Shown: positions 27,577 through 47,921 of the stretch, in pieces
Numbering within the stretch: the stretch's first letter is position 1
Layout: the number at the start of each line of letters is the position of its first letter
NCBI GenBank assembly: GCA_017502975.1
Contig: JAFVTV010000037.1
Coordinates: 16,576-80,575, forward strand
Direction of reading: 5' to 3'
DNA length: 64,000 nucleotides
DNA from: Clostridia bacterium
GTDB taxonomy: Bacteria; Bacillota; Clostridia; Oscillospirales; CAG-272
Made by a program: the position numbers and the translations under genes
The notes under the pieces: model-generated
Databases searched by the model: none
What the model was told of the DNA's origin: nothing
Seen by the model: the letters and a program-made list of their open reading frames with translations, nothing else

Positions 27577-28674
27577 TTAATTTTTTAGTGCTTCTTTTAA
27601 CACGCCGCCAATCACCTGTGCAATGCGGAAGAAGCCGAGGTCATTGGGATGTGCACCGTCAACCGTACAGGTATCCCACATCTCACCTTCAAAGAGGATC
27701 TCACCATCCACGAAATACACGTTCTTATCTCCTTCGGCAAGAGCTCTTTCATAGTTTGAACGAATGATCTCGCGGCGCGTGAAAAGGAACCCACGGCCTA
27801 CATAATTGACGTTGCCGAGCAATTTAACGTTTGAGCCCGTCATGAAAATGATCGGGATATCGGGATGCGTTTCGCGCACCTTTTTATAAAAGGGCCAGTG
27901 CGTGTCAATCAGGTTTTGCTCGCTGGGAGTATTGTGGTCATAGTCAAAGACAAACGCAGTCATGTCGAGTGTGGCAATATGCTCTGCCATACCAAACTCA
28001 CCCTTTGCTTTGCCCGAGAAGCCGAGGTTGATAATATCTGCATCAAGCATACGGCTGATCATAGCGGGATAGGAGTTGCCGGGGCGCGAAGCAACAGCGC
28101 CCTGCGTTGCGGAATGACCGTAAAACACAATGGGCTTTTCAAAGGCATAGGGCGTGGGGGCACTGAGATGAGAGCCCTTTTTAAGACCGATATACAGCGC
28201 CTTTACCTTATCGTAAAGCGGGAAGTTAATGGTATAATCGCAATATTTTCCGTCAGTGGACTTGCCCGAGGAATATCCCTCGGTAATGCCCTGAGGCGGA
28301 ATAAAGGACTTATAGTACATTTCTCTGCCGCCCTCATAGCCCTCGACCTTGCGATAAAGGTCAAAGCCCGTCTGCCCTGTTTTGGGCATATGGGACATGG
28401 GCGTGATATTTTTCATCACGGCCTTAATGGCAATATAGGTGGAATCGGTGCGAAAGCGCACGCGACCGCCCGTGGTGAGTTTGCGAACGCTGGTAACACC
28501 GGGAGAAACGCGCTCAGCCGCCTCCTTTGGCATACGGGTATAAAGTCCCTCACACTCCTCAAATTTCACACCGTGGATCACGAAAGGTGCATCCTCGATA
28601 TTAAACCACACGAGATCGGGCTCGGTAACGTCGGTTTCAACCACTAGATTCTTATCGATTGCATCAATTCTCAT
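27577..28674 (-). CDS. SGNH/GDSL hydrolase with N-terminal beta domain (paralog A)
   Basis: FYGHSATQG, NLGFSG, DYDHN, DGAHPND. Confidence 0.85.
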   Translation of the reverse strand: MRIDAIDKNLVVETDVTEPDLVWFNIEDAPFVIHGVKFEECEGLYTRMPKEAAERVSPGVTSVRKLTTGGRVRFRTDSTYIAIKAVMKNITPMSHMPKTGQTGFDLYRKVEGYEGGREMYYKSFIPPQGITEGYSSGKSTDGKYCDYTINFPLYDKVKALYIGLKKGSHLSAPTPYAFEKPIVFYGHSATQGAVASRPGNSYPAMISRMLDADIINLGFSGKAKGEFGMAEHIATLDMTAFVFDYDHNTPSEQNLIDTHWPFYKKVRETHPDIPIIFMTGSNVKLLGNVNYVGRGFLFTRREIIRSNYERALAEGDKNVYFVDGEILFEGEMWDTCTVDGAHPNDLGFFRIAQVIGGVLKEALKN

Positions 28675-28678
28675 GGCA

Positions 28679-29770
28679 TTATTTCTCCTCGTTCAGTGCT
28701 TTTTTCAGCACTTTGCCGATTACCTGTGACATGCGGTAAAAGCCAAGGTCGTTGGGGTGTGTACCGTCAACCGTGCAGGAATCCCAATGCTTGCCGCCAA
28801 AGAGCGTGTAGCCGTCAATAAAATAGACATTTTTATCGCCTGCGGCAATGGCATTTTCATAAGTCTTGCGAATGATCTCACGGCGATTGTAAAGGAAGCC
28901 GCGCCCCGCATAGTTCACGTTGCCCTGAAGCTTAGTGTTAGGCGCTGTTACCATAATGATCGGGATATCGGGATGTGCCGCACGTACCTTTTTATAGAAG
29001 GGCTCGTGCGTATCAATGAGATTTTGCTCGCTGGGCGTATTATGGTCGTAGTCAAGCACAAATGCACACATCGGAAGCGAAGCCACGTAATCCGCCATAC
29101 CGGGCTCACCCTTTGCCTTGCCCGAGAAGCCGAGATTGGTAAAGTTGATATTAAGCTCACGGCTGATCATAGCGGGGTAGGTGTTGCCGGGGCGCAAGGC
29201 GCAGCCACCGTGCGTGATAGAGGACCCGTAAAATACCACGGGCACCTCCTCTTTGTAGGGTGTGGGCGCACTTAGGCGAGAGCCCTTTTTGAGTGCCACG
29301 TAAAGTTCAAGCACACCATCATAAATCGGGAAATTGATGGTGTAATCATTATATTTCCCATCGGTTTTCTTACCCGAGGAGTAGCCCTCGGTGATCCCAA
29401 TGGGCGGCATAAAGGAAAAATAATACACGTCCTTGCCACGTTTTTTGTGGTAAAGGTCAAAGCCCGAGTGCCCCAGCCACGTCATATGAGAGGTGGGGGC
29501 AACGTTTTTTTGTACCGCCTTGATGGCGATGTAAGAGGAATCGGTCTTAAAGCGAACGCGCCCGCCCGAGGTCAGCTTACGTGCGCTAACGATACCGGGA
29601 GAAGCAAGCTCTGCCGCAGCCCTCGGCATGCGGGTATAGCGACCCTCAGCCTCCTCAAATTCCACGCCGTAGATCTGAAAAGGCGCCTCCTTGATATTAA
29701 ACCACACGAGGTCGGGCTCGGTAATATCGGTTTCAACGATAAAATTTCTATCGATATCTTCTATTCTCAT
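28679..29770 (-). CDS. SGNH/GDSL hydrolase with N-terminal beta domain (paralog B)
   Basis: FYGSSITHG, NLGFSG, DYDHN, DGTHPND; colinear with paralog A. Confidence 0.85.
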   Translation of the reverse strand: MRIEDIDRNFIVETDITEPDLVWFNIKEAPFQIYGVEFEEAEGRYTRMPRAAAELASPGIVSARKLTSGGRVRFKTDSSYIAIKAVQKNVAPTSHMTWLGHSGFDLYHKKRGKDVYYFSFMPPIGITEGYSSGKKTDGKYNDYTINFPIYDGVLELYVALKKGSRLSAPTPYKEEVPVVFYGSSITHGGCALRPGNTYPAMISRELNINFTNLGFSGKAKGEPGMADYVASLPMCAFVLDYDHNTPSEQNLIDTHEPFYKKVRAAHPDIPIIMVTAPNTKLQGNVNYAGRGFLYNRREIIRKTYENAIAAGDKNVYFIDGYTLFGGKHWDSCTVDGTHPNDLGFYRMSQVIGKVLKKALNEEK

Positions 29771-30494: not shown

Positions 30495-31460
30495 ATGGAT
30501 CTTACTACTTTTTTTAATCTTTTAACTATAATCGGCGTTCTTTTCCTTGTGATGATAGTAGGTTTTTTCTGTCGCAAGCGAGGCATTATCAACGACGTTT
30601 CCTCAAACCGCATGTCAAAGCTTATTATCGAGGTGGGGCAACCCGCACTGATCATTGGGTCACTCGCAGGTAAGCAGTTTAACTGGGAGCTTTTGCGCGA
30701 GGGCCTGCTCTATCTTGCAATCGGCTTTGTGCTTCATCCCTTAATGAGCGGGATCGGACTCCTGTTTGGGCGTGCCTTCCCCGATTTTGATGAGAGAAAG
30801 CTTTCGGTATTTGCGCTTACCTTTACAAACGCCGCCTTTATCGGCTTTCCCATTCTTGCAGCTGTCTTCCCAGAAAACGGCGTTTTCTACGGCTCGTTTT
30901 TCATCATCGGCTTCCACGTATATATGTGGACTTTCGGCATCTGGCTTCTCTCAAGAGGGCGTGATGACATCAAGCTGACTCCCAAAAAAGCTATCATTAA
31001 TTTTGGCACAATTCCCTGCATGATAGGTCTTGGGCTTTATCTTTTGAAGGCGGTTTTGCCAATGCCCGCGCTCTTGCTTGATTGCTGCACTTACCTTGGC
31101 AACCTTTGCATGCCCATTTCGGTGCTGATTACGGGCGCACTCATTGCAACACAGGATCTGCGTGCCATTTTAAAAAGCCCACGCCTATATATTTTTAATG
31201 CGGTTAAGCTGATCGGCTTACCGATTATCGTTTGCCTGATTGCAAAGCTTGTTACACTCGGCTTTTCAAACAGCTACGAGCTTGTCATGTTTTGCACCGT
31301 CATCTCGGCACTGCCAAGCGCCTCTACCGTGGCAATGCTGGCAGAGCTTTACAGCATCAAGCCCGGATACGCCGCGCAAACGGTTGGTACCACGTCACTG
31401 TTTTCCGTTGCTACCCTACCGTTACTGTATTTCATTGGTGATTTTGTAGCAAAGCTGTAA
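30495..31460 (+). CDS. AEC (auxin efflux carrier) family transporter
   Basis: PALII, FTNAAFIGFP, LPSAS; about 10 TM. Confidence 0.88.
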   Translation: MDLTTFFNLLTIIGVLFLVMIVGFFCRKRGIINDVSSNRMSKLIIEVGQPALIIGSLAGKQFNWELLREGLLYLAIGFVLHPLMSGIGLLFGRAFPDFDERKLSVFALTFTNAAFIGFPILAAVFPENGVFYGSFFIIGFHVYMWTFGIWLLSRGRDDIKLTPKKAIINFGTIPCMIGLGLYLLKAVLPMPALLLDCCTYLGNLCMPISVLITGALIATQDLRAILKSPRLYIFNAVKLIGLPIIVCLIAKLVTLGFSNSYELVMFCTVISALPSASTVAMLAELYSIKPGYAAQTVGTTSLFSVATLPLLYFIGDFVAKL

Positions 31461-31467
31461 TAAAAAA

Positions 31468-31506
31468 GCAAAAAGGAACCGCCCATTTAAGCGGTTCCTT
31501 TTTTGC
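31468..31506. terminator. Bidirectional terminator
   Basis: gcaaaaaggaaccgc...gcggttccttttttgc. Confidence 0.8.
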
Positions 31507-31700
31507 GTAGCCAAGGTGCGCGACGTAATCCTCGCAGCACGCGAGCGTGATACAAGGGTTGCAGTGCGCCGCTACGGCGCACCGCTTATAGATAAATGCT
31601 ATTATTCGATAAATCTTAAGGGGAATACAATTTCCGATAGTAGGATCTCATCTCCAAAGGTATCACGCTTGTATTCTCGATTTACTTTCTCAAGCTCGCG

Positions 31701-34700
31701 TTACCCCGCCAGAGTAATCTCCGGCAACAAGATCTCATCGCCAAAAATATCGATGGCGAGATCCTCACCCAAATACGGAGACTCCTCAATCTCAGGCTCT
31801 TCAGGCAGAGTGGTGTCGGAGAAGTAGTTGCCACGCCACAAGAGATACCCCGAACCTGTGTATTTGGTAGCAGATTGGTTGGTGGAGAAATCGTACCCAA
31901 CAAAATAACCTGTTCCATAGGAAATGGCAGAGGTTTTAGCCACGTTGGTAAGTCCTGCCAAAAACGCATTTGCCTCGCTTAACACCTCAGCGGCAGTGTT
32001 TGCCTCACCAAGACCGGCAATGCCGTCCTCGGTAAAGGTCATCGTGGGGTTATACCCTTCGCCGCTTGCCAAGGAAAGCGCGCGGCTTGTTAAAATGTAG
32101 CGCCAACGGGTATTTTTAATCATCTCAAGATTTTCAAGCGTGATTCTATCCGTAGAACTGTTCTTGGTCTTGCTTTGCACAGCGGCGGACGTGTTTTGCC
32201 ACAAAATGATCTGCGGATTGATAAGCTGATAAAGCTCTCCCTCACCACCTGTACCGTGATGTGCATTCATCATAATATCGGATTCAAGGTAAGCTCCGTA
32301 GGTAGCGCGCAAAGCTCTTGCGGTACGTGCATAAATATCACCCAGTGACATTGCGCTGATCTTTGAGGCTGCCACGGTATTTGCACTCACGGTATTACCG
32401 TTTTCCACATCGTGTGCATGTACGGTCAAGCGTATCACCGCGCAAGCGTTATTAAAGGCTTGCATTGACCAAGGATGCATATCCTCAGGGGTAAACATGA
32501 CCTCAAATTCAAGATTGCCCACAAAGAATTTTTGACCGGTATGCACATTATAAAAGGGTACGGGATCGTTTGCACCGTTTGAAGTACCTTTAAACCAATT
32601 TTCCGTTCCAAGTCTATTCTGGATATTCAGATTGATAGAATGTGCATTGTAGGCCTCCTCACTCGACGGGAAATTGCCAATGATAGCATCCACAACAAGA
32701 GTAGAGCCAAAATAACTCTTTTTGGAAACAGCATTGAGCAGACCCACGTGATCAGCGTGTCCGTGCGTGAGATACCATGCGGAAATACGGATAGGAGCTG
32801 CTTCTGTGGGGTTCTTGCCGTATATTCCTTTATAAAGCGCCTTTAATACATTGGCGAAATTTGTAACCTCAGCCGATGTACCGTTGCCGCCGTCAACCAC
32901 AACAAAGGAACCATCCTCAAGTGTATAAACATAGCATCCGGCTGAGCCAAGCTGCACCACGGTAAGCTTGGAATCAGTCACCTTTTGGTAAGACTGCTTG
33001 GTAAGGAAGTTTTGAGGCAGAATATGGTTTATATAAGAAACACTATCGGTTATTCTCGAGGAAATGACGCGCAGCGTCGGTCTGAACATTTCACCGAGTT
33101 TAGTGTCTTCACTCAGTTCCTGATTATATGCATGCTTATAAGCATGATACATAACATGGAGCATGATGCCCTCTCCATTGTTTGCCGTGCGATTCACATA
33201 CGTCACAAAGCAACTACCCTCAACAAAGCGCTCCTCCATATATACGGTATATCCGTTTTGTTGTAGCTTTTTGCAGTAAAAATAGTAATCGGCAAATACT
33301 GCATCAAGATAGTACAACTGGAGTTCACCGTTAGATACATTTACTGCACCCGAGAGCGCAAGATCATCAGGACGAGGATACGCGGTAATAAACTGCCCGA
33401 CATCTTCGGCAACATTACTCGCTCCTGTAGCACCCTCTACGCTATCAAAAGCACCCGTAAATCCGTTGCTGTTGCCTCTTTCAAACTCGTATTCGGCAGG
33501 AATGGCATATACATCTATCGCTGCATCGCCATTGAGATCCAAAGCATAATCGCCAAGATCGGCTAGGAAAAGGCTCTTCGCGAGGCGCAGCGTGGTATCA
33601 TCATACGAGGTAATCACAACGTTACCGTCCTTTATGAAATAGCCGTAATATCCTACGTCCTTTTCGCCCGCAAGCAAAAGCTCACGCGCAAGATCGGTAA
33701 GGCCAACGTGAATCGCGCCCCCATTCATGGCAAAGCTATCCGGAACATAGGCGAAATTAAACCCTGCGTTAAAGCCACCGCCCATAAGTGCCGCGCCAAT
33801 CTCCATTGCCGCATACAAGGGATAATCAAGACCAATATTGTCATTGTTTGCATCATTGTTATACAAATGATTGCCGCTGCTGTTGAAGCCTTGCCCTTCG
33901 TAATGCTCCCCGGTGATGCTATAAAGGCTTAAGAAAATATTGTAAGCGCGCATATCACGTGTGTGGGGGTAAACAATGGGCGTTTCTAAGTTGAGAATCG
34001 TCATTTCCACGTTGGAAGCAACGATCTCTGTAAGATCGAACGCGGCGCCGTTTGCCACTTTGCAGATCTCCTCAAATACGTTAAGCGCGCACATGGCAAG
34101 CGCCTCATTACTGCCTGCGATCACAATATTCTCACCAACCACACCAATGTAATAGCCGCAGCCCTCTACTTCAGCAAGTGCCTGCTTTACAGTGTTACCC
34201 GTACTGCCAACCAAAATGGGCATGCCTGTGCTGCCATACCCATAATTTTCAAGTGCTTGCACGAGAGATGTTGCCTTGTTTTGCAGATTGGTGCCAACCG
34301 TACCGTCAAAGGAAACAGCAGTGGCAGGAATCACACCTGTAGTAGTGGAAAGCGTGTGCGTATAGCTGCTGCATTGACGCAAAAGCTCCTGCTCTTGCGT
34401 GGTATATGCGCTATATGCGCCCGCCTTATAAAGCGATGGATATCCCGACTCGACCGTGCTTGTATATGCCTTTTTGGCAACACTTGCCATAGTATGTGCA
34501 TTTTTCGCCACATCATAAGTGCTATAATAATACGTACCGTCTACAAGCACGTAAGAAACCGCAGCATAAGCGCGCTCACAACTGCTAAGCTGTATCAATC
34601 CCCCGTTAAAGCTAATGCTTCCGCTTTCCGGGTCTTGTACAATACTTTCGCTTGCCGAAATATCCACATAAGGAATTTCAATATTGGCAGAAGCATTCCA

Positions 34701-36521
34701 GCCATTCAAAGCGGCGTGGGTAAAACCACCTGCTGCCGCAACATATTCTGCAGGTGCAATCAGCGTGCCAAAGGTATAGTCTTCACCATAGACGTATCCC
34801 ATTTGAGTCAAGGCATCCACAACTGAGCCCGGAATGGTAGATTTGAAAAGGATGCCCGGCTGGGAATCTACAATTGTGACAAATGCACCGTCAACCATAA
34901 CGGGAGAATACGTGGTGTCGGCATTCTCTTCATAGGCTTGATAACAATAATAGTTCAAACCGTTGTATTGAACCGTTACGGTGTTTTGAACAAACGGAAC
35001 ATCCTCACCAATGGCATCGTTCCTATCTATTACATAGGTTTTGATGTAGCGAGAAAGCAGCACTGCATCAGTAATCACGACCTCGGAATTACCAACACTT
35101 ACATCAACAAGCGGAGAAACACCGACACTCTCATTTATGAATACACCGCCACTAAGTAAAATATCCACGTCACAAAGAAAGTACATTTTAGTGGGATCTT
35201 CATAATTATCAGCATTCAGCTCATCAACATCAACGCCAACCGAAGTGCGCAGCAGCACGCCACCGCTTATTCCAGTGCTTTCCTCAATTTTAAATGTGCC
35301 GCCCGTAATTTCAAAGTAATCTCCCTTGTCCTTTCTCAGCGCAACATCAAACAAAGCATTGCCCTGCGTGGTAAAGGTACCGCCACTCACACAAATATTA
35401 CCTGCACAAGCGTAAAATAGCGCATTGGAAGCATTAGCTGCCCCTGTAAAAATACCGTTGGTAATGGACACGGGAATTGCACATTTGACAGTTAACACGC
35501 GCCCTGCGTTGGCAACGTGAAACGTGCCACCCTCAACTGTTAGACTTGCCCCGCTATCGGCAAACAACGCTACACCCTTATTTTGAATGTCAAAGATACC
35601 GCCTTCAACAGTTAAGGTATCGTCAACTCCATTCAAATAGACCGCAGCACCACCATCAGAGAGGACCGTAAAGCTACCCCCTTCGATTACAATATCAGTA
35701 GCAGTAACCAATTTTTGGTTCACAATATCCGCCGAGCCGATAAAGCTACCGCCTGTAACGGTAAGCGTGCCGGATCGCATATCTATTATCGTGTCTACGT
35801 GACAGGAGAACGTACCGCCCGTGATCTTAACCGAAGCACTACCGCTGTTCCCGTAAACCACAGCAAAGCTCTTGCTGGAATCATCCCTATTATCTAAAAT
35901 AAAATTACCGCCGTTTATTTCAAGATAGGTCGATCCTCGATTTACGTAAAACAAATATTCTTCTGCCGCAGCGGTATTTCTGTTAAAAGTACCGTTGTTG
36001 ATATAAATGTTTGAGCCTGCTAAATAAGAACTGCCTGCTGCTCCGATAGCACCGTAAAAGGTGCCGCCATTGACGTTAAGCGTTGCAAACCCCTGCACAC
36101 CGATGGCAAGCCCACTTCTTGAAGCGCTGCCACTTGAACTGATCATTGTGCCACTCTCAACCGTTAGCTCTGTGTTTTGGTATTTTACCATAACAGCGGT
36201 TGTTTGAAGAGCGGTTATAGAAATATCGCGAAGTGTGACCTCGCCCGCCTCAATAACCAGTCCGCCCGCTGTAAACGTAACAGTGACACCGGAGCTGCCG
36301 CAAAGCGTATAGGCTTTATCCGCATTAAGGATAAGATCCTCAGAAAGTTCTATGCTTGCAGTCACCATAACGGTGTCGCCGTCGACAACACTGCCGATGG
36401 CGTTTTGGAGTTCTGCCTGTGTGCCTACCTCATGCACCGTGGCGGACGCTGCAACAGCAGTTATCACAAGCATCAGAACCACCAAAAACAAAAACAAGAT
36501 CAAGCGTGTTTGTTTTTTCAT
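31701..36521 (-). CDS. Large secreted modular protein, paralog 1: beta-helix-like repeats + MBL-fold (ComEC/Pce-like) hydrolase
   Basis: Signal peptide MKKQ...AVAASA; many I.GG.F repeats; VDGG, WYLTHGHADH, NN, LGD, AHHG MBL motifs; PE-rich linker and FGDEILLPEI tail; ATG 36521 with AAGGAG RBS. Confidence 0.8.
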   Translation of the reverse strand: MKKQTRLILFLFLVVLMLVITAVAASATVHEVGTQAELQNAIGSVVDGDTVMVTASIELSEDLILNADKAYTLCGSSGVTVTFTAGGLVIEAGEVTLRDISITALQTTAVMVKYQNTELTVESGTMISSSGSASRSGLAIGVQGFATLNVNGGTFYGAIGAAGSSYLAGSNIYINNGTFNRNTAAAEEYLFYVNRGSTYLEINGGNFILDNRDDSSKSFAVVYGNSGSASVKITGGTFSCHVDTIIDMRSGTLTVTGGSFIGSADIVNQKLVTATDIVIEGGSFTVLSDGGAAVYLNGVDDTLTVEGGIFDIQNKGVALFADSGASLTVEGGTFHVANAGRVLTVKCAIPVSITNGIFTGAANASNALFYACAGNICVSGGTFTTQGNALFDVALRKDKGDYFEITGGTFKIEESTGISGGVLLRTSVGVDVDELNADNYEDPTKMYFLCDVDILLSGGVFINESVGVSPLVDVSVGNSEVVITDAVLLSRYIKTYVIDRNDAIGEDVPFVQNTVTVQYNGLNYYCYQAYEENADTTYSPVMVDGAFVTIVDSQPGILFKSTIPGSVVDALTQMGYVYGEDYTFGTLIAPAEYVAAAGGFTHAALNGWNASANIEIPYVDISASESIVQDPESGSISFNGGLIQLSSCERAYAAVSYVLVDGTYYYSTYDVAKNAHTMASVAKKAYTSTVESGYPSLYKAGAYSAYTTQEQELLRQCSSYTHTLSTTTGVIPATAVSFDGTVGTNLQNKATSLVQALENYGYGSTGMPILVGSTGNTVKQALAEVEGCGYYIGVVGENIVIAGSNEALAMCALNVFEEICKVANGAAFDLTEIVASNVEMTILNLETPIVYPHTRDMRAYNIFLSLYSITGEHYEGQGFNSSGNHLYNNDANNDNIGLDYPLYAAMEIGAALMGGGFNAGFNFAYVPDSFAMNGGAIHVGLTDLARELLLAGEKDVGYYGYFIKDGNVVITSYDDTTLRLAKSLFLADLGDYALDLNGDAAIDVYAIPAEYEFERGNSNGFTGAFDSVEGATGASNVAEDVGQFITAYPRPDDLALSGAVNVSNGELQLYYLDAVFADYYFYCKKLQQNGYTVYMEERFVEGSCFVTYVNRTANNGEGIMLHVMYHAYKHAYNQELSEDTKLGEMFRPTLRVISSRITDSVSYINHILPQNFLTKQSYQKVTDSKLTVVQLGSAGCYVYTLEDGSFVVVDGGNGTSAEVTNFANVLKALYKGIYGKNPTEAAPIRISAWYLTHGHADHVGLLNAVSKKSYFGSTLVVDAIIGNFPSSEEAYNAHSINLNIQNRLGTENWFKGTSNGANDPVPFYNVHTGQKFFVGNLEFEVMFTPEDMHPWSMQAFNNACAVIRLTVHAHDVENGNTVSANTVAASKISAMSLGDIYARTARALRATYGAYLESDIMMNAHHGTGGEGELYQLINPQIILWQNTSAAVQSKTKNSSTDRITLENLEMIKNTRWRYILTSRALSLASGEGYNPTMTFTEDGIAGLGEANTAAEVLSEANAFLAGLTNVAKTSAISYGTGYFVGYDFSTNQSATKYTGSGYLLWRGNYFSDTTLPEEPEIEESPYLGEDLAIDIFGDEILLPEITLAG

Positions 36522-36580
36522 ACCTCTGTTCTCCTTTTCCATAATTTTAAACTTTAGCACTCTAATGGTGCCATATGGAA

Positions 36581-36795: not shown

Positions 36796-37302
36796 TTATT
36801 TGGCGAGCAATATTTCTCGCATGCAAGTATAAAACACATCGTATGCGGTAAGGTCTTTAGGTTCAAAGTAAAAGGCAGTACCGTCGGCATAAAAGTAGAT
36901 CGCGCTTTCAGTAAAATACAGCGACTCGTACTCCCCTGCCACGGTTCTTATTTGCCACTTGGTATCCCATGCACCCTCAAGCATGGCAATATTATCCTTA
37001 TTGGTAAATCCTGCCTCATCTACGACTGAAAGCTTTTCTCGAAGTAAGCTTACCTCCTCGCCCGTGAGCATGACCTGCACACCGCGATCGGCAATCGTAC
37101 CTTGTGACTCCATAAGGGGATCGGAAAGGAGCATACGCTCATATTCAGCCGTTAAAAAAAGCTCTACACGCTCTTGAAAAATTTTTTTCTCACGCAGCTG
37201 CGGCATAAATATAGTAAAAAATATAATGATCAGGGCAAGCGTGAGTATTATAATACCCACTACTGTAACACCAACATTTTTACTTTTAAGCTTTATTGAC
37301 AT
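36796..37302 (-). CDS. Hypothetical protein with N-terminal membrane anchor
   Basis: 168 aa ORF; GGGGTG RBS; own TTGACT-17-TATACT promoter at 37360-37332. Confidence 0.65.
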   Translation of the reverse strand: MSIKLKSKNVGVTVVGIIILTLALIIIFFTIFMPQLREKKIFQERVELFLTAEYERMLLSDPLMESQGTIADRGVQVMLTGEEVSLLREKLSVVDEAGFTNKDNIAMLEGAWDTKWQIRTVAGEYESLYFTESAIYFYADGTAFYFEPKDLTAYDVFYTCMREILLAK

Positions 37303-37356: not shown

Positions 37357-38760
37357 TCAAGATTGCTTTTTTCGCCTCACAAAAAGCGAGAGGAGCGCCT
37401 TGGGGGAAAATGGGATGAGTGGGTAAAGATAACTGTGTTCGCCGTTTACGGTCTTATTGGATACAATTAAGACAATGATCAAAAAGACACCTATCACAAA
37501 TCCCCATATATTGAAAAACGCCGTAAGCGTAAGCAGCAGAATACGCATAAATTTAAGTGCATAACCGAGTTCAAAGCTTGTCTGAGTGAAGTTGGCGATC
37601 GCAACAAATGCCATATACAAAATTACCTCGGGAATAAGCCACCCTACGTCAACCGCAAAATCCCCCAGAATCAAGCCGCCTACCACCGACAAGGAATTTG
37701 CAAGCATATCGGGAGTATTCATTGAAGCCATGCGCAACCCGTCAATGACAAATTCCGCAAGCAGCAGCTGCAAATAGATCGGTAGCTTTCCCCTGTTTTC
37801 GGGCAATGCAAAGGAGAGCCATTCAGGCACATATTGCGGATTGAGCACACCAAGAAACCAAATGGGCGTCATAAACAGTGTAAGCCAAAACACAGCATGT
37901 CGCACGGCGCGCAGATACGTACCGGTTAAAGGTGGCAAATAAAAGTCGCTGCTTTCCTGTAAAAAATCAAAAATTGCGGTGGGCAGGATCATGGCGGCAG
38001 GCGAATTATCGATCAGCACAATGACACTTCCCTCCAAAAGGTGCGCCGAGGCAACGTCGGGGCGCTCGGTATAACGAATTTTGGGAAAGGGGTTGTACCA
38101 CCGCGATCTGATCAGTGTTTCGGCAAGCGATTCGTGCCCCATGGTCAGCGCGTCTGTCTGAATGGTTGAAATTTTATCCTTGATATATTTTACAAGCTTT
38201 GGATCGGCACGATCCTGCATGTAGCAGATCACAATATCGCTTTTTGACGCTTTGCCCATGCTTGTATAGTGCATAGTGAGTGCTACGTCGCGAATGCGGC
38301 GACGGATCAGCGCCGTGTTAAATACCAGCGTTTCCACAAAGCCGTCGCGCGGACCGCGCATAACACGGTCATTTTCAGGCTCTGCCGTTTCGCGCGCGGG
38401 ATACGTGCGCGCATCAATCACAAGCCCCTCTGAGCCAAACGTGCTGCCAAACAGCACGGTGGCACCCGAAAGGATCATTTGAAACATCAATTCCGCGCTG
38501 CTTGTTACGTCACACTCGACATACGGCATATTACTTTCCAAAAATGCTGTAGCATCACGGGGTAATTCCTTTAAAGATAACAGATAGATGAAAAGTTTTT
38601 GCATAGCACCGTCCTTAATAAGACCGTCTACATAAAACAGGGTTATCTCGTCCTGCCCTATCTTTAGCACCTTTTTGATAATGTCAAAATTTTCTTTAAC
38701 GCGGAGCGTTTTTTCAAATAGCTTTACGTTTTCTTGATAATTTTCTTTTAGCCTTTGCAT
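37357..38760 (-). CDS. GerA-family spore germination protein (SpoVAF-like)
   Basis: RGPRDGFVETL..NTALIRRRIRD, YTERPD, GGLILGDFAV. Confidence 0.88.
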   Translation of the reverse strand: MQRLKENYQENVKLFEKTLRVKENFDIIKKVLKIGQDEITLFYVDGLIKDGAMQKLFIYLLSLKELPRDATAFLESNMPYVECDVTSSAELMFQMILSGATVLFGSTFGSEGLVIDARTYPARETAEPENDRVMRGPRDGFVETLVFNTALIRRRIRDVALTMHYTSMGKASKSDIVICYMQDRADPKLVKYIKDKISTIQTDALTMGHESLAETLIRSRWYNPFPKIRYTERPDVASAHLLEGSVIVLIDNSPAAMILPTAIFDFLQESSDFYLPPLTGTYLRAVRHAVFWLTLFMTPIWFLGVLNPQYVPEWLSFALPENRGKLPIYLQLLLAEFVIDGLRMASMNTPDMLANSLSVVGGLILGDFAVDVGWLIPEVILYMAFVAIANFTQTSFELGYALKFMRILLLTLTAFFNIWGFVIGVFLIIVLIVSNKTVNGEHSYLYPLIPFSPKALLSLFVRRKKQS

Positions 38761-38898: not shown

Positions 38899-41800
38899 TC
38901 AATTAATTTCCGGCAACAAGATCTCATCGCCAAAAACATCGATAGTGTAATCCAAACCGTCAATCACCGGCAGTTCGGGCTGCTCGGGTTCGGGTTCCGG
39001 TTCGGGTTCGGGCTGCTCGGGCAGGGTGGTATCGGAGAAGAAATTGCCGCGCCACAAGAGATATCCTTCGCCACTGTATACTTTACTTGTTTGCTGTCCG
39101 GTAGAGAAGTCCAACCCAAACGGCGTTTTCGAGGTTTGCCCAATAAAATAACCTGTTCCGTAGGAGAAGGCGTCTGTGCTACCCGGATTTGTAAGGCCGT
39201 TCAGAAATTCAGTTGCCTCTCTTAACACCTCTTCAGGAGTGCTTGCCTTACCAAGACCCGCAACACCGCTTGCAGCAAAGGTGATTGTGGGATTATACGT
39301 TCCACTGCTTAGTCTGTAGCCTGATATGATGTAGCGCCAACTGATGTTTTTGATTGCATCATAGTTTTCATGCTTATATTTTTTCGAACTTGTGTTTGAG
39401 ATTTGACCTGCAACCTCAGCAGCATTATTTTGCCACAGAATAATTTGGGGATTGATAAGCTCATAAAGCTCTCCCTCGCCACCAGATCCGTGATGCCCAT
39501 TTGTCATGATATCGGATTCAAGATAGCTGCCGTAGGCGGCGCGCATCATTCTTGCTGTGCGTGCGTAAATATCACCAAGCGACATCAAGCTCACCTTGGA
39601 GGATGCAACGGCATTGGCGCTGACTGTACCACCAACTTGCATGTTGTGTGCATGCGTTGTTAAGCGAATGACCGTGCAGGCATTGTTAAAGGCAATCGTT
39701 GACCAAGGGTGCATATCCTCGGGCGTGAACATAACCTCAAATTCAAGGTTTGCCACAAAGAATTTTTGACCGGTGTGCACGTTATAATAGGGTACGGGAT
39801 CGCTAGCCCCCTTTGAGGTGCCCTTAAACCAGTTGGAGGTGCCAATATAGTTTCGTAGAGTATTGCTAACAGAGGGCGCATTGTAGATCTCATCGTTTGA
39901 GGGGAAATTTGTAATAATGGCATCCAGCACAACGGTATTACCAAAATAAGAGGAAAATCCTGACAACAGGCCCCAATGGTCACCGTGTCCGTGCGTGAGA
40001 TACCATGCCGCAATACGGATGGGACTGCTGGATGTGGGATTGCTGCCATATACTTCCTTATAAAGCGCTTTTAGTACATTGTAGAATTCCGAAACATTTG
40101 CGTTACTTGCACCGTCTATGATAACAAAGGAGCCATCCTCCAGCGTGTAGACGTAGCAGCCCTTTCCATCGTATGGACGCTCTACCACGGTAAGCTTGGA
40201 ATCTGTAACCTTTGTATAAGACTGCTTGGTAAGGAATTTTTCGGGGAGAATATGATTTACATAAGAAACACTGTCGGTTATCGTAGAGGAGATTACGCGC
40301 AGAGTAGGTGTAAACATATCAGCCAGCGTTGTAGTACTACCTTCGCTAAGAAACTGCGTAGAAGCGTGCTTGTACGCGTTATACATGATGTGAAGCATAA
40401 TACCGTTGCCATTGTTGGCGGTGCGGTTCACAAGCGTTATAAAATAGCTGTCCTCAACCGCGCGCTCTTCCATATATACGGTATATCCGCTGTCCTTCAG
40501 TTTATTTACATAGCGCGTGTAATCTTCAACCGTTGCGTCAAGATAGTAAAGTTGAAGCTCTCCATTGGATACGTTTACAGCACCCGAGAGTGCAAGCTCA
40601 TCGGGTCTGGGATAATTGGTAATAAGCTGCTTTACATCACTTGCCACATTGCCCGTGCCTGTAGCGTCTGAAACGCTGTCAAATGCATCTGTAAAGCCGT
40701 TGTTATAGCCATTTTCAAACTCGAAATCAGCAGGGATAGCATAAACGTCTGCCGTACCGTCACCGTTTACGTCCAGGGCGTAATCATCAAGGCTTTCAAG
40801 GAACAGGCTCTTTGCCAAGCGCAACGTAGCATCATCATAAGAGGTAATCACAACGTTGCCGTCCTTTATGAAGTAGCCGTAATATCCTACGTCCTTACCA
40901 CTCGCCAGCAAAAGCTCGCGTGCAAGATCGGTAAGACCAATATGAATCGCACTGCCGCTCACAACAAAGCTATCCGGCACATAAATGCAGTTATAGCCGG
41001 AGGTCGCTAACTGATCACCGATCTGCTTTGCCACAAACAAGGGGGCATCCACAAGGATATATTCATTTGCCTCGAGATTGTACAAATGCGTGCCCGAATA
41101 TCTGAATTTGATCGATGAAAAGGCATCTTCATGCTTAAGCGATCCGTCATTAAACTGAGGCAACAGGTTATAGGCATTGGCATCACGCGTGTGAGAATAT
41201 ACAAAGGGAGTTTCCCAGTTAAGCGTAACCATTTGCACGTTGGAGGCAACGATCTCGGTGAGATCAAACGCGGCGCCATTTGCCGCCTTGCAAATTCCCT
41301 CAAACACAGAAAGTGCCTGCATGGTAAGTGCATCGTTACTGCCTGCGATTACAATCTGCTCGCCGATTACACCGATATAGTAGCCGTAGCCCTCTACCTT
41401 TGCAAGGGCTTGCTTTACGGCGGCATTCGTAGCGCCCTTGCCACCGATCAAAATTTGATGTGTGCCGGAACCGGAGCCATAGGTTGCAAAGAAATCAATC
41501 GCCTTGCTTTGCAGATTAGTACCCGCTGTACCGCTAAAATTAACGGTTTTAACAGGAATAACACCTTCAGCAACGGTTAAAGGCTGACAATTGCCATACT
41601 CACGCAAAAGCGCTTGATCTTGTGTATTGTACGGGCTGAATGCGCCGGGCATATACTCTGATCTGTGCGGATAATCCTCACTTAACACAGACGAGCAATC
41701 CTTATACGCCATTTGAGAAACGAGTGCCATGGTACGCGCGTTTTGCGTCACATCGTAGGCGCTGTAATAATACGTACCGTCTACACACACGTAAGCTACT

Positions 41801-42900
41801 GCGGCATACGCACGCTCACAGCTATTTAAATATATCAATCCGCCGTTAAAATCAATGCTGCCATCCTGCTGATATATAATGCTATTTTGAGCGGGAATAT
41901 CAACATAACACGGTGAAGCTCCCGCCCCTTCTCCCCATGTTTTAAGGTTAGCGTGTGTAAAGCTACCTGCAGCCGCAACGTAATCGGCAGGCGCGATCAG
42001 CGTACCAAAGGTATAGCTCTTTTGCGCCAGAGCAGTTACGACCGAGCTCGGAATGGTAGAGTAAAACAAAAGACCCGGCTGGTTATCGACAAGGGCAACC
42101 GAGGCGCCCTCATCCATAACGGGCGCATACGCAGTGTTGCCATTTCCCCCATAGACTTTATAGCAATAATAATTGCTGCCATTATATTGAACGACAACAG
42201 TGTTGTTGGCAAACGGAATATCCTCACCGACAGCATTGTTGACATCCACGATATAGTTTTTAACATTGCGAGAAAGAAAAACTACATTGCCAATCACCAC
42301 CTTGGAATTACTTGCAGAAGCATCAATCAGCTGAGAGGTGGTTGCGCGATGATCGATAAACATGCCGCCCGAAAGCTTAATATCTACGTCATTAAGGTAA
42401 AGAACCTTGGTGGGATCGGCATAATTCCCTTCATTTATCTCATCAGTCACACCAACACGCGTGCGTAAAATCGCGCCGCCGTTGTCGCCGCTAGCCACTG
42501 CCTCCATGATATACGCACCGCCCGTGATCGTAAAGCCATCACCATTAGCCTTACTCAGCGCAATATCAAACAAAACATTGCTCTTGGCAATAAAGGTGCC
42601 ACCGCTGAAGGTTACGTTGCCCGCATTGATCAAAAAACTGCCGGACGTGAGTGTAACGGTTACATCCGAAGAACTGCCGCGCAAGGTATAGGTTGCGTTT
42701 TGGCTAAACGTGATATCACCAGAAACAGACATGCTTGCGGTTACAACAATTTCATCACCGTTTTTAACCTTGCTCAGTGCGCTTTCAAGTTCTGCCTTCG
42801 TATCTACCTGATACGTTGTAGCAGATGCCGCAACGGCGGTTACCGTAAGCAGCAAAGCTACCAAAAAAGCAAACAAAATAAAACGTATTTGTTTTTTCAT
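38899..42900 (-). CDS. Large secreted modular MBL-fold protein, paralog 2 (short beta-helix region)
   Basis: Same architecture as paralog 1; WYLTHGHGDH, NGHHG; ends DYTIDVFGDEILLPEIN; ATG 42900. Confidence 0.8.
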   Translation of the reverse strand: MKKQIRFILFAFLVALLLTVTAVAASATTYQVDTKAELESALSKVKNGDEIVVTASMSVSGDITFSQNATYTLRGSSSDVTVTLTSGSFLINAGNVTFSGGTFIAKSNVLFDIALSKANGDGFTITGGAYIMEAVASGDNGGAILRTRVGVTDEINEGNYADPTKVLYLNDVDIKLSGGMFIDHRATTSQLIDASASNSKVVIGNVVFLSRNVKNYIVDVNNAVGEDIPFANNTVVVQYNGSNYYCYKVYGGNGNTAYAPVMDEGASVALVDNQPGLLFYSTIPSSVVTALAQKSYTFGTLIAPADYVAAAGSFTHANLKTWGEGAGASPCYVDIPAQNSIIYQQDGSIDFNGGLIYLNSCERAYAAVAYVCVDGTYYYSAYDVTQNARTMALVSQMAYKDCSSVLSEDYPHRSEYMPGAFSPYNTQDQALLREYGNCQPLTVAEGVIPVKTVNFSGTAGTNLQSKAIDFFATYGSGSGTHQILIGGKGATNAAVKQALAKVEGYGYYIGVIGEQIVIAGSNDALTMQALSVFEGICKAANGAAFDLTEIVASNVQMVTLNWETPFVYSHTRDANAYNLLPQFNDGSLKHEDAFSSIKFRYSGTHLYNLEANEYILVDAPLFVAKQIGDQLATSGYNCIYVPDSFVVSGSAIHIGLTDLARELLLASGKDVGYYGYFIKDGNVVITSYDDATLRLAKSLFLESLDDYALDVNGDGTADVYAIPADFEFENGYNNGFTDAFDSVSDATGTGNVASDVKQLITNYPRPDELALSGAVNVSNGELQLYYLDATVEDYTRYVNKLKDSGYTVYMEERAVEDSYFITLVNRTANNGNGIMLHIMYNAYKHASTQFLSEGSTTTLADMFTPTLRVISSTITDSVSYVNHILPEKFLTKQSYTKVTDSKLTVVERPYDGKGCYVYTLEDGSFVIIDGASNANVSEFYNVLKALYKEVYGSNPTSSSPIRIAAWYLTHGHGDHWGLLSGFSSYFGNTVVLDAIITNFPSNDEIYNAPSVSNTLRNYIGTSNWFKGTSKGASDPVPYYNVHTGQKFFVANLEFEVMFTPEDMHPWSTIAFNNACTVIRLTTHAHNMQVGGTVSANAVASSKVSLMSLGDIYARTARMMRAAYGSYLESDIMTNGHHGSGGEGELYELINPQIILWQNNAAEVAGQISNTSSKKYKHENYDAIKNISWRYIISGYRLSSGTYNPTITFAASGVAGLGKASTPEEVLREATEFLNGLTNPGSTDAFSYGTGYFIGQTSKTPFGLDFSTGQQTSKVYSGEGYLLWRGNFFSDTTLPEQPEPEPEPEPEQPELPVIDGLDYTIDVFGDEILLPEIN

Positions 42901-42951
42901 ATTCACTCTCTCCTTTATAAAAAGATTGGGAGTAACACTTTCCATGATACC

Positions 42952-43177: not shown

Positions 43178-46100
43178 TCATTTGATTTCCGGCAACAAGA
43201 TCTCATCGCCAAAAACATCGATAGTGTAATCCAAACCGTCAATCACCGGCAGTTCGGGCTGCTCGGGCTGTTCGGGCTGCTCGGGTTCGGGCTGCTCCGG
43301 CTCGGGTTGCTCCGGCAGTGTGGTATCAGAAAAGTAGTTGCCACGCCACAAAAGATATCCTTCACCACTGTATGCGGTTGCGCTCTTGTTGGTGAAGAAG
43401 TCATACGAAACATAGTAACCGGTTCCATAAGAGATCGTGGAGCTGCTGTTTATATTTTGAAGTCCTTCCACAAACGCCTGTGCCTGCTTGCGCACCTCTT
43501 CATCGGTGGTTGCCTTGCCAAGACCGGCAACACCGTTTGCGCCAAATGTAATCGTAGGATTATACGTTCCACTACTTAACCTGTAGCCGGATATAATATA
43601 GCGCCAACGGGTGTTTTTGATCATCTCGAGATTCTCGCTGGTATTTCTATCCGTGGCACTGCTCGAAGTCTTGCTCTTCACACCGGAAGCCTTATTTTGC
43701 CACAAAATGATTTGGGGATTAATGAGCTGATAAAGCTCACCCTCGCCGCCCGTACCGTGATGCCCATTCGTCATGATATCGGATTCAAGATAACTGCCAT
43801 AAGCTGCACGCATCATTCTTGCCGAGCGTGCGTAAATATCACCAAGCGACATTAGGCTTACCTTAGAGGATGCAACGGCATTGGCGCTAACAGTACCACC
43901 CACTTGCACGTTATGTGCATGCGTCGTTAAGCGAATGACCGTGCAGGCATTGTTAAATGCTGCTGTTGACCAGGGGTGCATATCCTCAGGTGTAAACATA
44001 ACCTCAAATTCAAGGTTGCCAATATAGAATTTTTGACCCGTGTGCACGTTATAGAAGGGCACGGGATCACTAGTCCCATTTGAAGTGCCCTTGTACCAGC
44101 TGGATGTGCCGATCCAGTTGCGTATGGTATTGTTAACGGAGGGCGCATTGTAGATCTCATCGTTTGAGGGGAAATTCGAGATAATGGCATCCAATACAAC
44201 CGGATAAGAACTGCTACTCAAATATGAGGAAAAACCGTTTAACAACCCAGAATGGTCACCGTGGGTGTGTGTGAGATACCACGCTGCTATGCGAATGGGC
44301 TTGCTTGACGTGGGATTGCTGCCATATATTCCTTTATAAAGCACCTTTAGTACATTGTAAAATTCCGAAACATTTTTGTTGCTTGCGCCGTCTATGATAA
44401 CAAAGGAGCCGTCCTCAAGCGTATAAATGTAACAACCCTTTCCATCATATGGACGCTCTACCACGGTAAGCTTGGAATCTGTAACCTTTGTATAAGACTG
44501 CTTGGTAAGGAACTTTTGAGGCAAGATATGATTTACATAGGAAACACTGTCTGTTATTTTTGAGGAAATGACGCGCAATGTGGGAGTAAACATATCAGAC
44601 AGCATAGTAGTACTATCATCGCCAAAGACCTGTGTGGAAGCGTGCTTGTAAGCGTTATACATGATGTGAAGCATAATACCGTTTCCATTGTTGGCATTGC
44701 GGTTTACAAGCGTCACAAAGTAACTGCCCTCTACCTCACGCTCTGCCATATATACGGTATACCCACTTTGCTTCAGCTTGCTGAAGTAGCGCGTGTAATC
44801 ATCAAGCGTTGCATCAAGATAGTAAAGCTCAATCTCGCCGTTGGATACGTTTACCGCACCCGAAAGTGCAAGGTCATCAGGGCGAGGATAGTTGGTAATA
44901 AGCTGCTTGACTTCATCGGCAACATTACCTGTTCCGGTTGCACCGGAAACACTATCAAAGGCACCTGTAAAGCCATTATTATAGCCTTTCTCAAACTCAT
45001 AATCCGAAGGGATGGCATATACGTCAGCCGTTCCGTCGCCATTTACATCCAAAGCATAGTCAGCAAGGTCGTCAAGGAATACCTTCTTTGCAAGGCGCAG
45101 AGTCGCGTCGTCATACGAGGTAATAACCACATTGCCATCCTTTACAAAATAGCCGTAATAGCCTACATCTTTCCCTCCCGCAAGCAGAAGCTCGCGTGCA
45201 AGAGAGGTAAGACCGATATGAATGGCGCTGTCACTTATAGCAAAGCTATCCGGCACATAGACACCGTTATATTCGGACCCTGTAAGCGTTTTAGAGATCT
45301 CCATTGCCAAAAACAGCGGGGCATCGACAAGGGTCCATTCGTTTGCCTCAAGATTGTACAAATGTTTACCGGAGGAAGCGAATTTAATCGATGAAAACGC
45401 ATCGTCATGCTTAGCAGTTGAGGTAATATACTGAGGCAACAAGTTATAAGCTCCTGCATAACGCGTGTGCGAATATACAAACGGAGTTTCCACATTCAGC
45501 GTGGTCATCTGCACGTTAGAAACAATAATCTCGGTAAGATCAAACGCAGCGCCGTTTGCCGCTTTGCAAATTGCCTCAAATGCGTCAAGTGCCTGCATAA
45601 TGAGCGCATCGTTACTGCCGGCAATCACGATCTTATTATCCATCACGCCGATATAGTAACCAAAGCCCTCTACCTCGGCAAGCGCCTTCTTTACGGTAGA
45701 GCCCTTACTACCCACCAAAACAGAGGTGCCGGAGGAGCCATAGCCATAGCTTGCAAGCGTTTGCGCAAGGGCTGTTGCCTTGTTTTGCAGATTTGCTCCC
45801 GCCGTACCGTCAAAGGAAACTGCGGCAGCAGGCTTAACACCTTGCGCAGTGGTCAGCGTGTGCGTATAGCTACTGTATTGGCGCAAAAGCTCCTGCTCTG
45901 CCACGCTGTATTCGCTATACGCACCGGAAATATACGTTGATGCATACAGATAATCTTCGGTTTGTATCAGTGAAAAATCCCTATAGGCATCCTTGGAGAT
46001 CTGCGCCATGGTACGCGCATTCTCCGTTACAGTATAGCTGCTGTAATAATACGTGCCATCAACGCACACGTAGGACACTGCGGCATATGAACGCTCACAG

Positions 46101-47872: not shown

Positions 47873-47921
47873 ATTCATTCTCCTTTATGCAGGATTAAAA
47901 AGCAGACACCTATATTACTTT

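Follow-up and report, generated by a model that had tools for sequence, protein, structure and literature searches.

The 64,000-nucleotide window analysed here (Clostridia bacterium, assembly GCA_017502975.1, contig JAFVTV010000037.1, positions 16,576 to 80,575) encodes three large paralogous proteins on its minus strand, and the gene for one of them, paralog 1, is followed, in frame and just past its stop codon, by a second copy of its own C-terminal motif. This arrangement is probably the outcome of a nonsense mutation that became fixed in a two-motif tail, with the downstream copy left as an untranslated relic in the 3′ untranslated region (UTR). In particular, orthologs have a sense codon at the position of the stop and a continuous open reading frame (ORF) through both motifs, in the same frame and at the same spacing, and the window retains a TAA-TAG double stop and a hairpin downstream of the second motif, this stop being the one in use in a relative, L054.

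The C terminus of paralog 1 reads ...DIFGDEILLPEITLAG-TAA (in longer stretches of the same end, ...GEDLAIDIFGDEILLPEITLAG-TAA and ...DLAIDIFGDEILLPEITLAG-TAA). Past this TAA the same frame remains open for 32 codons, RELEKVNREYKRDTFGDEILLSEIVFPLRFIE, and then closes with TAA-TAG. The hidden motif lies exactly 87 nucleotides (nt), or 29 codons, downstream of motif 1; the two copies differ at four synonymous codons (GGC/GGA, TTG/CTA twice, and GAG/GAA) and at one codon, CCG/TCG, that exchanges P for S. A first-pass annotation of the sequence had described this order of motif, TAA, same-frame second motif and TAA-TAG, together with the codon comparison, and both are borne out by the coordinates. 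The features of the gene end are listed below, where G000 is the genome holding the window (a metagenome-type assembly of 56 contigs, 84% complete, 1.66 Mb), G044 is a sister species, X9 and X14 are contigs from two further studies, and P0002 and its cluster mate P0015 are proteins from other metagenomes, absent from the 40 genomes of the genus.

31701–36560, minus strand: coding sequence of paralog 1 as now terminated, 1619 residues from GTG (database versions begin at residue 14 and have 1606 residues)
31716–31745, minus strand: motif 1, FGDEILLPEI, translated; its DNA differs from the paralog 2 motif solely in the E codon, and from the paralog 3 motif in the E codon and the final I codon
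31704–31715, minus strand: TLAG, the last four codons; aligned with SNPW of P0002 and P0015; the RNA pairs with the LLPE codons in a small hairpin
31701–31703, minus strand: in-frame TAA, context TAA-C; placed against R of P0002 and E of P0015 in the alignment; the same codon in G044, X9, and X14
31605–31700, minus strand: extension of 32 codons, continuing the frame past the TAA
31659–31700, minus strand: putative relic linker, RELEKVNREYKRDT, 14 codons; contains the K5E polymorphism at 31688
31629–31658, minus strand: hidden motif 2, FGDEILLSEI, with S (TCG) against P (CCG) in close relatives
31605–31628, minus strand: putative relic end, VFPLRFIE, aligned with AFPFRRVE(S) of P0002 and P0015; contains P27L (31621) and R29G (31616)
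31599–31604, minus strand: double stop TAA-TAG, read as ancestral; the working stop in L054
31561–31585, minus strand: GC-rich hairpin with an 11-bp stem and loop TAG, 13 nt past the TAA-TAG; stem kept in G044 and L054, loop different
31585–31751, minus strand: tail cassette, 98% identical between G000 and G044 with flanks at 75–87%; marks a recombination tract, ends approximate

The hidden motif is not a chance resemblance, because a six-frame scan of the 1.66-Mb assembly (3,320,408 ten-residue windows) yielded five matches of at least 7/10 to the motif: the three paralog termini at 10/10, the hidden copy at 9/10, and one unrelated match at 7/10. The extension was also considered as an independent small ORF and rejected as a separate gene, since its 32 in-frame codons include no ATG, GTG, or TTG.

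Relatives translate both motifs in a single ORF. When the paralog 1 frame, translated through the stop with X at the TAA, was used as the query of a protein search, 13 proteins came back: two end at TLAG (P0001 and P0003), seven have one motif and other endings, one ends before the tail and is probably cut at a contig end (P0007), one is frameshifted (P0013), and two carry two motifs in one ORF (P0002 and P0011). P0002 (1640 residues) is an ortholog of paralog 1, with 86% identity to the window protein across the last 470 residues; its tail reads ...DIFGDEMSLPEF-SNPWRVDPQDTNTDYRRD-NFGSEILLPEFAFPFRRVES and then a stop, that of P0015 reads ...DAFDEEILFPEF-SNPWENNSQASDADCNKD-NFGGEILLPEFAFPFRRVES and then a stop, and the pattern shared by the two is ...PEF-SNPW[R/E]...[Y/C]..D-NFG[S/G]EILLPEFAFPFRRVES up to the stop. 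Between motif 1 and the end, the window tail aligns ungapped with both, the 18-residue spacing is shared, and the window TAA falls opposite R in P0002 and E in P0015. The same longest contig size, 40,577, is listed for P0002 and for the paralog-3-like protein P0020, which suggests that the two lie on one contig and hence that P0002 comes from the orthologous locus. Two-motif tails are also present in P0011/P0021 and in genome G043, and possibly, in a degenerate form, in G021. A second protein search with short fragments gave three matches, all paralog-2/3-like or the frameshifted form of genome G008, and no new paralog-1 tails. Where both motifs are translated, the C-terminal-most one is the constrained copy, because P0002 and P0015 are identical at 20/21 positions of the terminal motif and end as against 7/13 of the internal motif; for the linker the figure is 6/17 (hand counts).

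The in-frame TAA is genuine. In G044 the coding sequence likewise ends TLAG-TAA and continues into an open 32-codon extension, here with K5E and R29G; contigs X9 (31350–32050) and X14 (31441–32050) show no change at 31701–31703; and six distinct database proteins, on 16 contigs, end TLAG. Since the same TAA recurs in all of these, a sequence error, one of the options raised in the first-pass annotation, is excluded. X9 and X14 are two of the four run contigs compared (Logan contigs, from a listing of 21 rows and 7 studies); the other two, X17 and X20, miss the extension. Among the 40 genus genomes, a strict degenerate form of the motif pattern occurs in two, G000 and G044.

The conservation of the TAA in G044 is one event seen twice and carries little weight, because the tail cassette moved by recombination. 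A metagenome scan gave 168 pattern matches, of which one, L054, is a confirmed relative. L054 is G044-like in both flanks, and its tail, ...DIAFDIFGDEILLPEISVSFASIE-TAA-TAG, has a single motif, is one 87-nt unit shorter, and is without the in-frame TAA. At the DNA level, the L054 motif and the hidden copy differ at 3/30 nt, the L054 motif and motif 1 at 5/30 nt, and the working stop of L054, ...ATCGAA-TAA-TAG, is followed by the same hairpin. The pairwise comparisons along the region are as follows.

Upstream 470 nt: G000 against G044, 87.3% identical; G044 against L054, 94.3% identical
Tail cassette: G000 against G044, 163/166 identical; G044 against L054, 64/79 identical plus an 87-nt gap
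Downstream 232 nt: G000 against G044, 75.0% identical; G044 against L054, 94.7% identical

On these identities, G044 has a G000-type tail cassette inside an L054-type backbone, and the stop-bearing cassette of ~170 nt moved between lineages by homologous recombination. Identity between G000 and G044 is also mosaic outside the cassette, stretches of 140–330 nt at ~100% alternating with regions at 85–90% (for example, at ~30650–31330 and 32340–32480), which suggests frequent homologous exchange between the two beyond the tail.

These relatives bear directly on what the first-pass annotation had proposed. Its statement that the second copy was, or is, under protein-level selection is supported in the past tense, since relatives translate the second motif (P0002, P0015, and L054). 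Of the explanations it offered, the one that agrees best with the two-motif ORF and the sense codon of the orthologs is a two-motif tail hit by a nonsense mutation; the qualifier "recent" finds no support, the stop being fixed in at least two species-level lineages.

The history that we favour runs as follows. The common ancestor of the P0002 and G000 lineages would have had a two-motif tail, in which a point mutation converted a sense codon of the 18-residue linker to TAA; starting from the E of P0015, one substitution, GAA to TAA, would suffice, and parsimony on the protein alignments points to the direction sense to stop. Translation would now end after motif 1, at ...PEITLAG, and the former linker, motif 2, the former ...FIE end, and the former TAA-TAG with its hairpin would have been left in the 3′ UTR, probably without function. 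The hairpin at 31561–31585 looks like the original 3′ end structure of the gene. Loss of motif 2 may have been tolerated or even favoured; it would be tolerated because motif 1 then stands near the C terminus, as it does in paralogs 2 and 3.

Gene conversion may since have held motif 1 to the sequence of the paralogs, leaving the hidden copy to drift. Specifically, 11/12 codons of motif 1 recur in paralog 2, whereas identical residues share a codon at a background rate of 0.57 (binomial p ~0.013, by hand), which suggests gene conversion between the two. The hidden copy shares just 5/9 codons with motif 1, an ordinary paralog-level divergence, indicating that the motif duplication is old. The tail region is generally unstable, with variable PE repeat length, hypervariable linkers, and a frameshift in genome G008. 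In the last case, paralog L040 (G008:C46:4889-6697) ends ...GNFFSSFNLP and a stop, and its tail was lost by frameshift, since a degraded tail, DLIPDIPGDEIERKWFHGF followed by a stop, sits in another frame. In two further G008 copies, the contig ends shortly before the tail is reached.

Variation within the extension is in keeping with relaxed constraint. Across the four DNA versions (G000, G044, X9, and X14), the 96 nt of the extension contain three variable sites: 31688, AAA to GAA (K5E); 31621, CCC to CTC (P27L); and 31616, AGA to GGA (R29G). Each of the three alters the amino acid and lies at a first or second codon position, whereas 8/12 variable sites in the adjacent 347 nt of coding sequence are at third positions (codon positions hand-derived). 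In addition, a P shared by L054 and both motifs of P0002 and P0015 is replaced by S in the hidden copy, a change whose direction fits relaxed constraint. With three sites to go on, the evidence leans towards a neutral extension.

Several observations weigh against reading the extension as a relic. The third-position contrast between extension and adjacent coding sequence comes from three sites and reaches a one-sided Fisher value of ~0.08 (by hand). The extension is still open, is free of insertions and deletions, and has an intact core motif in all four DNA versions. The hidden motif and end are identical to P0002 at 14/23 positions and the translated motif 1 region at 12/18, so that no accelerated decay is visible, the distance to P0002 being not above that of motif 1. 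The stop-bearing cassette crossed a species boundary, which could mean that it was favoured, though a truncated tail and a leaky tail would fit alike. Finally, TAA-C is the rarest TAA context of the genome (37/324), so some leakiness is possible; UAA-C is the weakest UAA context in Escherichia coli.

In a first alternative, readthrough of the TAA is programmed or used, most ribosomes producing the one-motif tail and a minority a two-motif isoform that ends ...FIE. A translated extension would yield the peptide DTFGDEILLSEIVFPLR or a stop-spanning peptide. In favour of readthrough are the in-frame, open extension closed by a strong double stop, the rare stop context, the hairpins that flank the stop, the retention of TAA and open extension in G044, X9, and X14, and the natural occurrence of two-motif proteins in the family. 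We nonetheless consider this quite improbable. The first-pass annotation, which raised readthrough, had itself held that a sense codon in orthologs would refute it, and P0002 and P0015 have R and E at this place and L054 has no stop there; conservation of the stop thus fails beyond the closest relatives, and the agreement of those closest relatives is not independent, the 98%-identical cassette being shared by recombination. The three nonsynonymous polymorphisms and the P-to-S change in the hidden motif likewise count against a translated extension. UAA is the least leaky stop in bacteria. TAA is also the commonest stop of this genome (324/522 open frames of at least 400 codons), and the neighbouring permease gene ends at a TAA at the residue where its homologues end. 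A search with Aragorn found 38 tRNAs and no suppressor among them in the 84%-complete assembly.

As for predicted RNA structure, the region folds better than shuffled sequences (z = −4.1), mainly owing to the 11-bp GC hairpin (31585–31561); this conserved hairpin lies ~115 nt downstream of the in-frame TAA, too far to be a readthrough stimulator. A predicted outer stem, in which CGCGAGC beside the TAA pairs with GCUCGCG ~150 nt downstream, cannot form in G044, its distal arm lying in divergent sequence. An Rfam search of 31300–31900 gave sub-threshold chance matches only. At 31709–31731 on the minus strand, the LLPE and TLAG codons form a 9-bp RNA hairpin that ends 5 nt before the TAA, and its DNA arms match at 6/9 positions. 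A template-switch (quasi-palindrome) origin of TLAG-TAA is only a thought.

A second alternative, to which we likewise give little chance, is that the hidden copy is a silent spare tail, and that recombination of one motif copy with the other, deleting 87 nt, or exchange of the cassette between strains or paralogs, switches the tail that is displayed. Such switching would let a surface or secreted protein vary. L054 has the form expected, being exactly one 87-nt unit shorter and joining the upstream flank of motif 1 to a hidden-copy-like motif, stop, and hairpin. Against this, a plain deletion within the G000/G044 cassette would not give L054, since 15/79 aligned nt differ, mostly in the last 24 nt, and the 87-nt-deleted form is not seen in the contigs of four runs (X9, X14, X17, and X20), assembled contigs being prone to drop rare variants. 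The exchange of the cassette between the G000 and G044 lineages, the P0002 and P0015 linkers that differ at 11/17 positions inside proteins clustering at 90% identity, and the codon sharing of motif 1 and paralog 2, with its hint of gene conversion, are also in its favour, but ordinary homologous recombination accounts for all of these. There is no recombinase, invertible element, or repeat array, and one spare copy makes no repertoire.

An artefact or separate gene, in the form of an error at the TAA, a tandem mis-assembly of two strain alleles, or the remaining 3′ end of a fourth paralog that was deleted (the last also raised in the first-pass annotation), has almost no probability in our view, for while the window comes from a fragmented metagenome-type assembly and contigs of relatives often break at tails (G008 C12 and C46), the same layout is present in the independent assembly G044, the contigs of two other studies span 31701–31703 unchanged, the TLAG proteins recur on their 16 contigs, and P0002 and P0015 hold both motifs in one ORF at the identical ungapped, in-frame spacing, which a gene stump would not reproduce.

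Several known systems offer a comparison. Old 3′ coding sequence and its stop left in the 3′ UTR are an ordinary early stage of C-terminal truncation or pseudogenisation, and the present case resembles nonsense-shortened genes in the sense codon and continuous ORF of its orthologs, the in-frame ungapped relic, the old stop and hairpin downstream, and the hints of relaxed constraint. It differs in that the lost piece repeats a motif the protein still carries, so that a two-motif tail would have become a one-motif tail with function left intact, and in that the truncated allele has been spread by recombination. Programmed readthrough is exemplified by phage Qbeta A1 (via UGA), retroviral gag-pol (via UAG), and Drosophila and mammalian extensions. 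The window shares with these an in-frame open extension, a protein-like conservation pattern, and a strong final stop; unlike in these, the stop is UAA and is not conserved in the next-closest orthologs, no sign of purifying selection is seen after it (three variable sites), and there is no known stimulatory element. Silent-cassette variation is known from pilE/pilS of Neisseria and vlsE of Borrelia. An untranslated homologous segment beside an expressed surface-protein gene, with recombination in the segment, is common to those systems and the window, whereas here there is a single 96-nt relic, with no repertoire, no dedicated machinery, and no switching event observed. Shortening of a gene end through a nonsense mutation is a well-known type of event; the protein family is undescribed.

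The three paralogs (1350–1620 residues, secreted type) all lie on the same strand between 31701 and 47878. Paralogs 2 and 3 and their terminal motifs are located as follows.

38899–42945, minus strand: coding sequence of paralog 2, ending DVFGDEILLPEIN and a stop
38905–38934, minus strand: FGDEILLPEI of the paralog 2 end
43178–47878, minus strand: coding sequence of paralog 3, ending DVFGDEILLPEIK and a stop
43184–43213, minus strand: FGDEILLPEI of the paralog 3 end

The other two paralogs are 62–64% identical to paralog 1. Each of the three has a Sec-type signal peptide, a GGTF-repeat region, conserved middle domains, a domain with the HxHxDH motif (THGHADH), a PE-rich linker, and the acidic-hydrophobic tail; in paralog 2, ~290 residues of the GGTF-repeat region are missing. 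The (E/Q)PEP linker before the tail varies from ~4 to 10 repeat units among paralogs and strains (38940–39010, 43220–43300, L048, and L052), a pattern as expected from slippage.

Paralog 1 is predicted to be a metallo-β-lactamase (MBL)-fold hydrolase, the HxHxDH motif and the modelled fold both being present. Specifically, Pfam matched Lactamase_B (PF00753) at 22.4 bits, just below the 22.7 cut-off, and an AlphaFold2 model of the last 470 residues, built on a 27-row alignment, reached a predicted TM-score of 0.86, with Foldseek top matches that all have the MBL fold (ComEC domain 9ic4 and Pce 2bib/1wra; E values of 1e-9 to 3.5e-10). Pfam searches with the tails and whole proteins gave nothing besides this sub-threshold match, NCBIfam had no match for paralog 1, P0002, or the paralog 2 tail, and residues 1400–1619 of paralog 1 fell in unnamed clusters of the ESM Atlas, with no lead. 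The last 28 residues of the model, comprising the linker end and motif, have a predicted local distance difference test score below 50 and are not docked on the domain, and the C-terminal tail is thus predicted to be disordered. The motif itself resembles a disordered docking peptide at the C terminus of a secreted MBL-fold hydrolase. Pce/CbpE of Streptococcus pneumoniae (2bib and 1wra) and the ComEC MBL domain (9ic4) share the MBL-fold catalytic part, and Pce, too, is modular and secreted, with an attachment module at its C terminus; Pce, however, anchors by choline-binding repeats of ~20 residues each, whereas the window protein, at 13–18% identity, ends in a PE-rich linker and an acidic-hydrophobic peptide of 10–12 residues that is predicted to be disordered.

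The tail marks a family restricted to this genus, consisting of secreted MBL-fold proteins of 1300–1850 residues from gut Clostridia. A profile of 12 tails searched against 1.84 billion representatives found 13 clusters, of which 11 reach a motif-bearing end that is acidic-hydrophobic, with D-x-[F/W/L]-x-[D/E/G]... followed by hydrophobic residues, ~12 residues or fewer from the C terminus; the other two, P0027 and P0028, end before the tail. In close relatives the motif is D-x-F-G-D-E-I-L-L-P-E-I, in one or two copies. In the window genome the tail is found only in the three paralogs, among 2502 open frames of at least 150 residues, and it is therefore not a general sorting signal. In sorting signals such as LPXTG and PEP-CTERM, a transmembrane helix and basic tail come after a short motif, and several unrelated proteins share the signal; no hydrophobic helix follows the motif here. 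A literature search for three motif strings returned no match. The genus also contains tandem arrays (up to 5–6 in a row) of proteins of ~780–830 residues with an MBL-type domain and without the acidic tail (G003, G005, G006, G009, G015, G021, and others; in G000 at G000:C38:8347-11211, outside the window), and these arrays are a lineage-specific expansion.

Between paralogs 2 and 1 lie a GerA-family germination gene (37357–38760) and an ORF for a membrane-anchored protein of 168 residues (36796–37302), for which a Pfam search gave no match. On the other side, paralog 1 converges on a Mem_trans permease gene (30495–31460), and between the two is one further feature.

31470–31503, called on the minus strand: terminator-like hairpin and T-run

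Further along, at 27577–29770 on the minus strand, are two tandem SGNH/GDSL esterase paralogs (365 and 363 residues) with GxDLY N-terminal domains.

The gene end is a worked example of how a coding-looking in-frame extension can be ordinary history, and of how the finding of a stop conserved with an open extension in close relatives misleads when the segment has been exchanged by recombination, the tail segment here being a recombination hot spot. More interesting than the stop is the conserved C-terminal peptide of a secreted MBL-fold family, predicted to be disordered and labile in copy number. A bolder idea, which we think unlikely, sees the tail as a modular docking peptide that is actively varied in both identity and copy number, the second copy of paralog 1 serving as a spare that is reached through low-level TAA readthrough or through motif recombination of the L054 type, with its 87-nt deletion. 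If this were true, a giant secreted MBL-fold enzyme would appear within populations in forms with one motif, two motifs, or an alternative ending.

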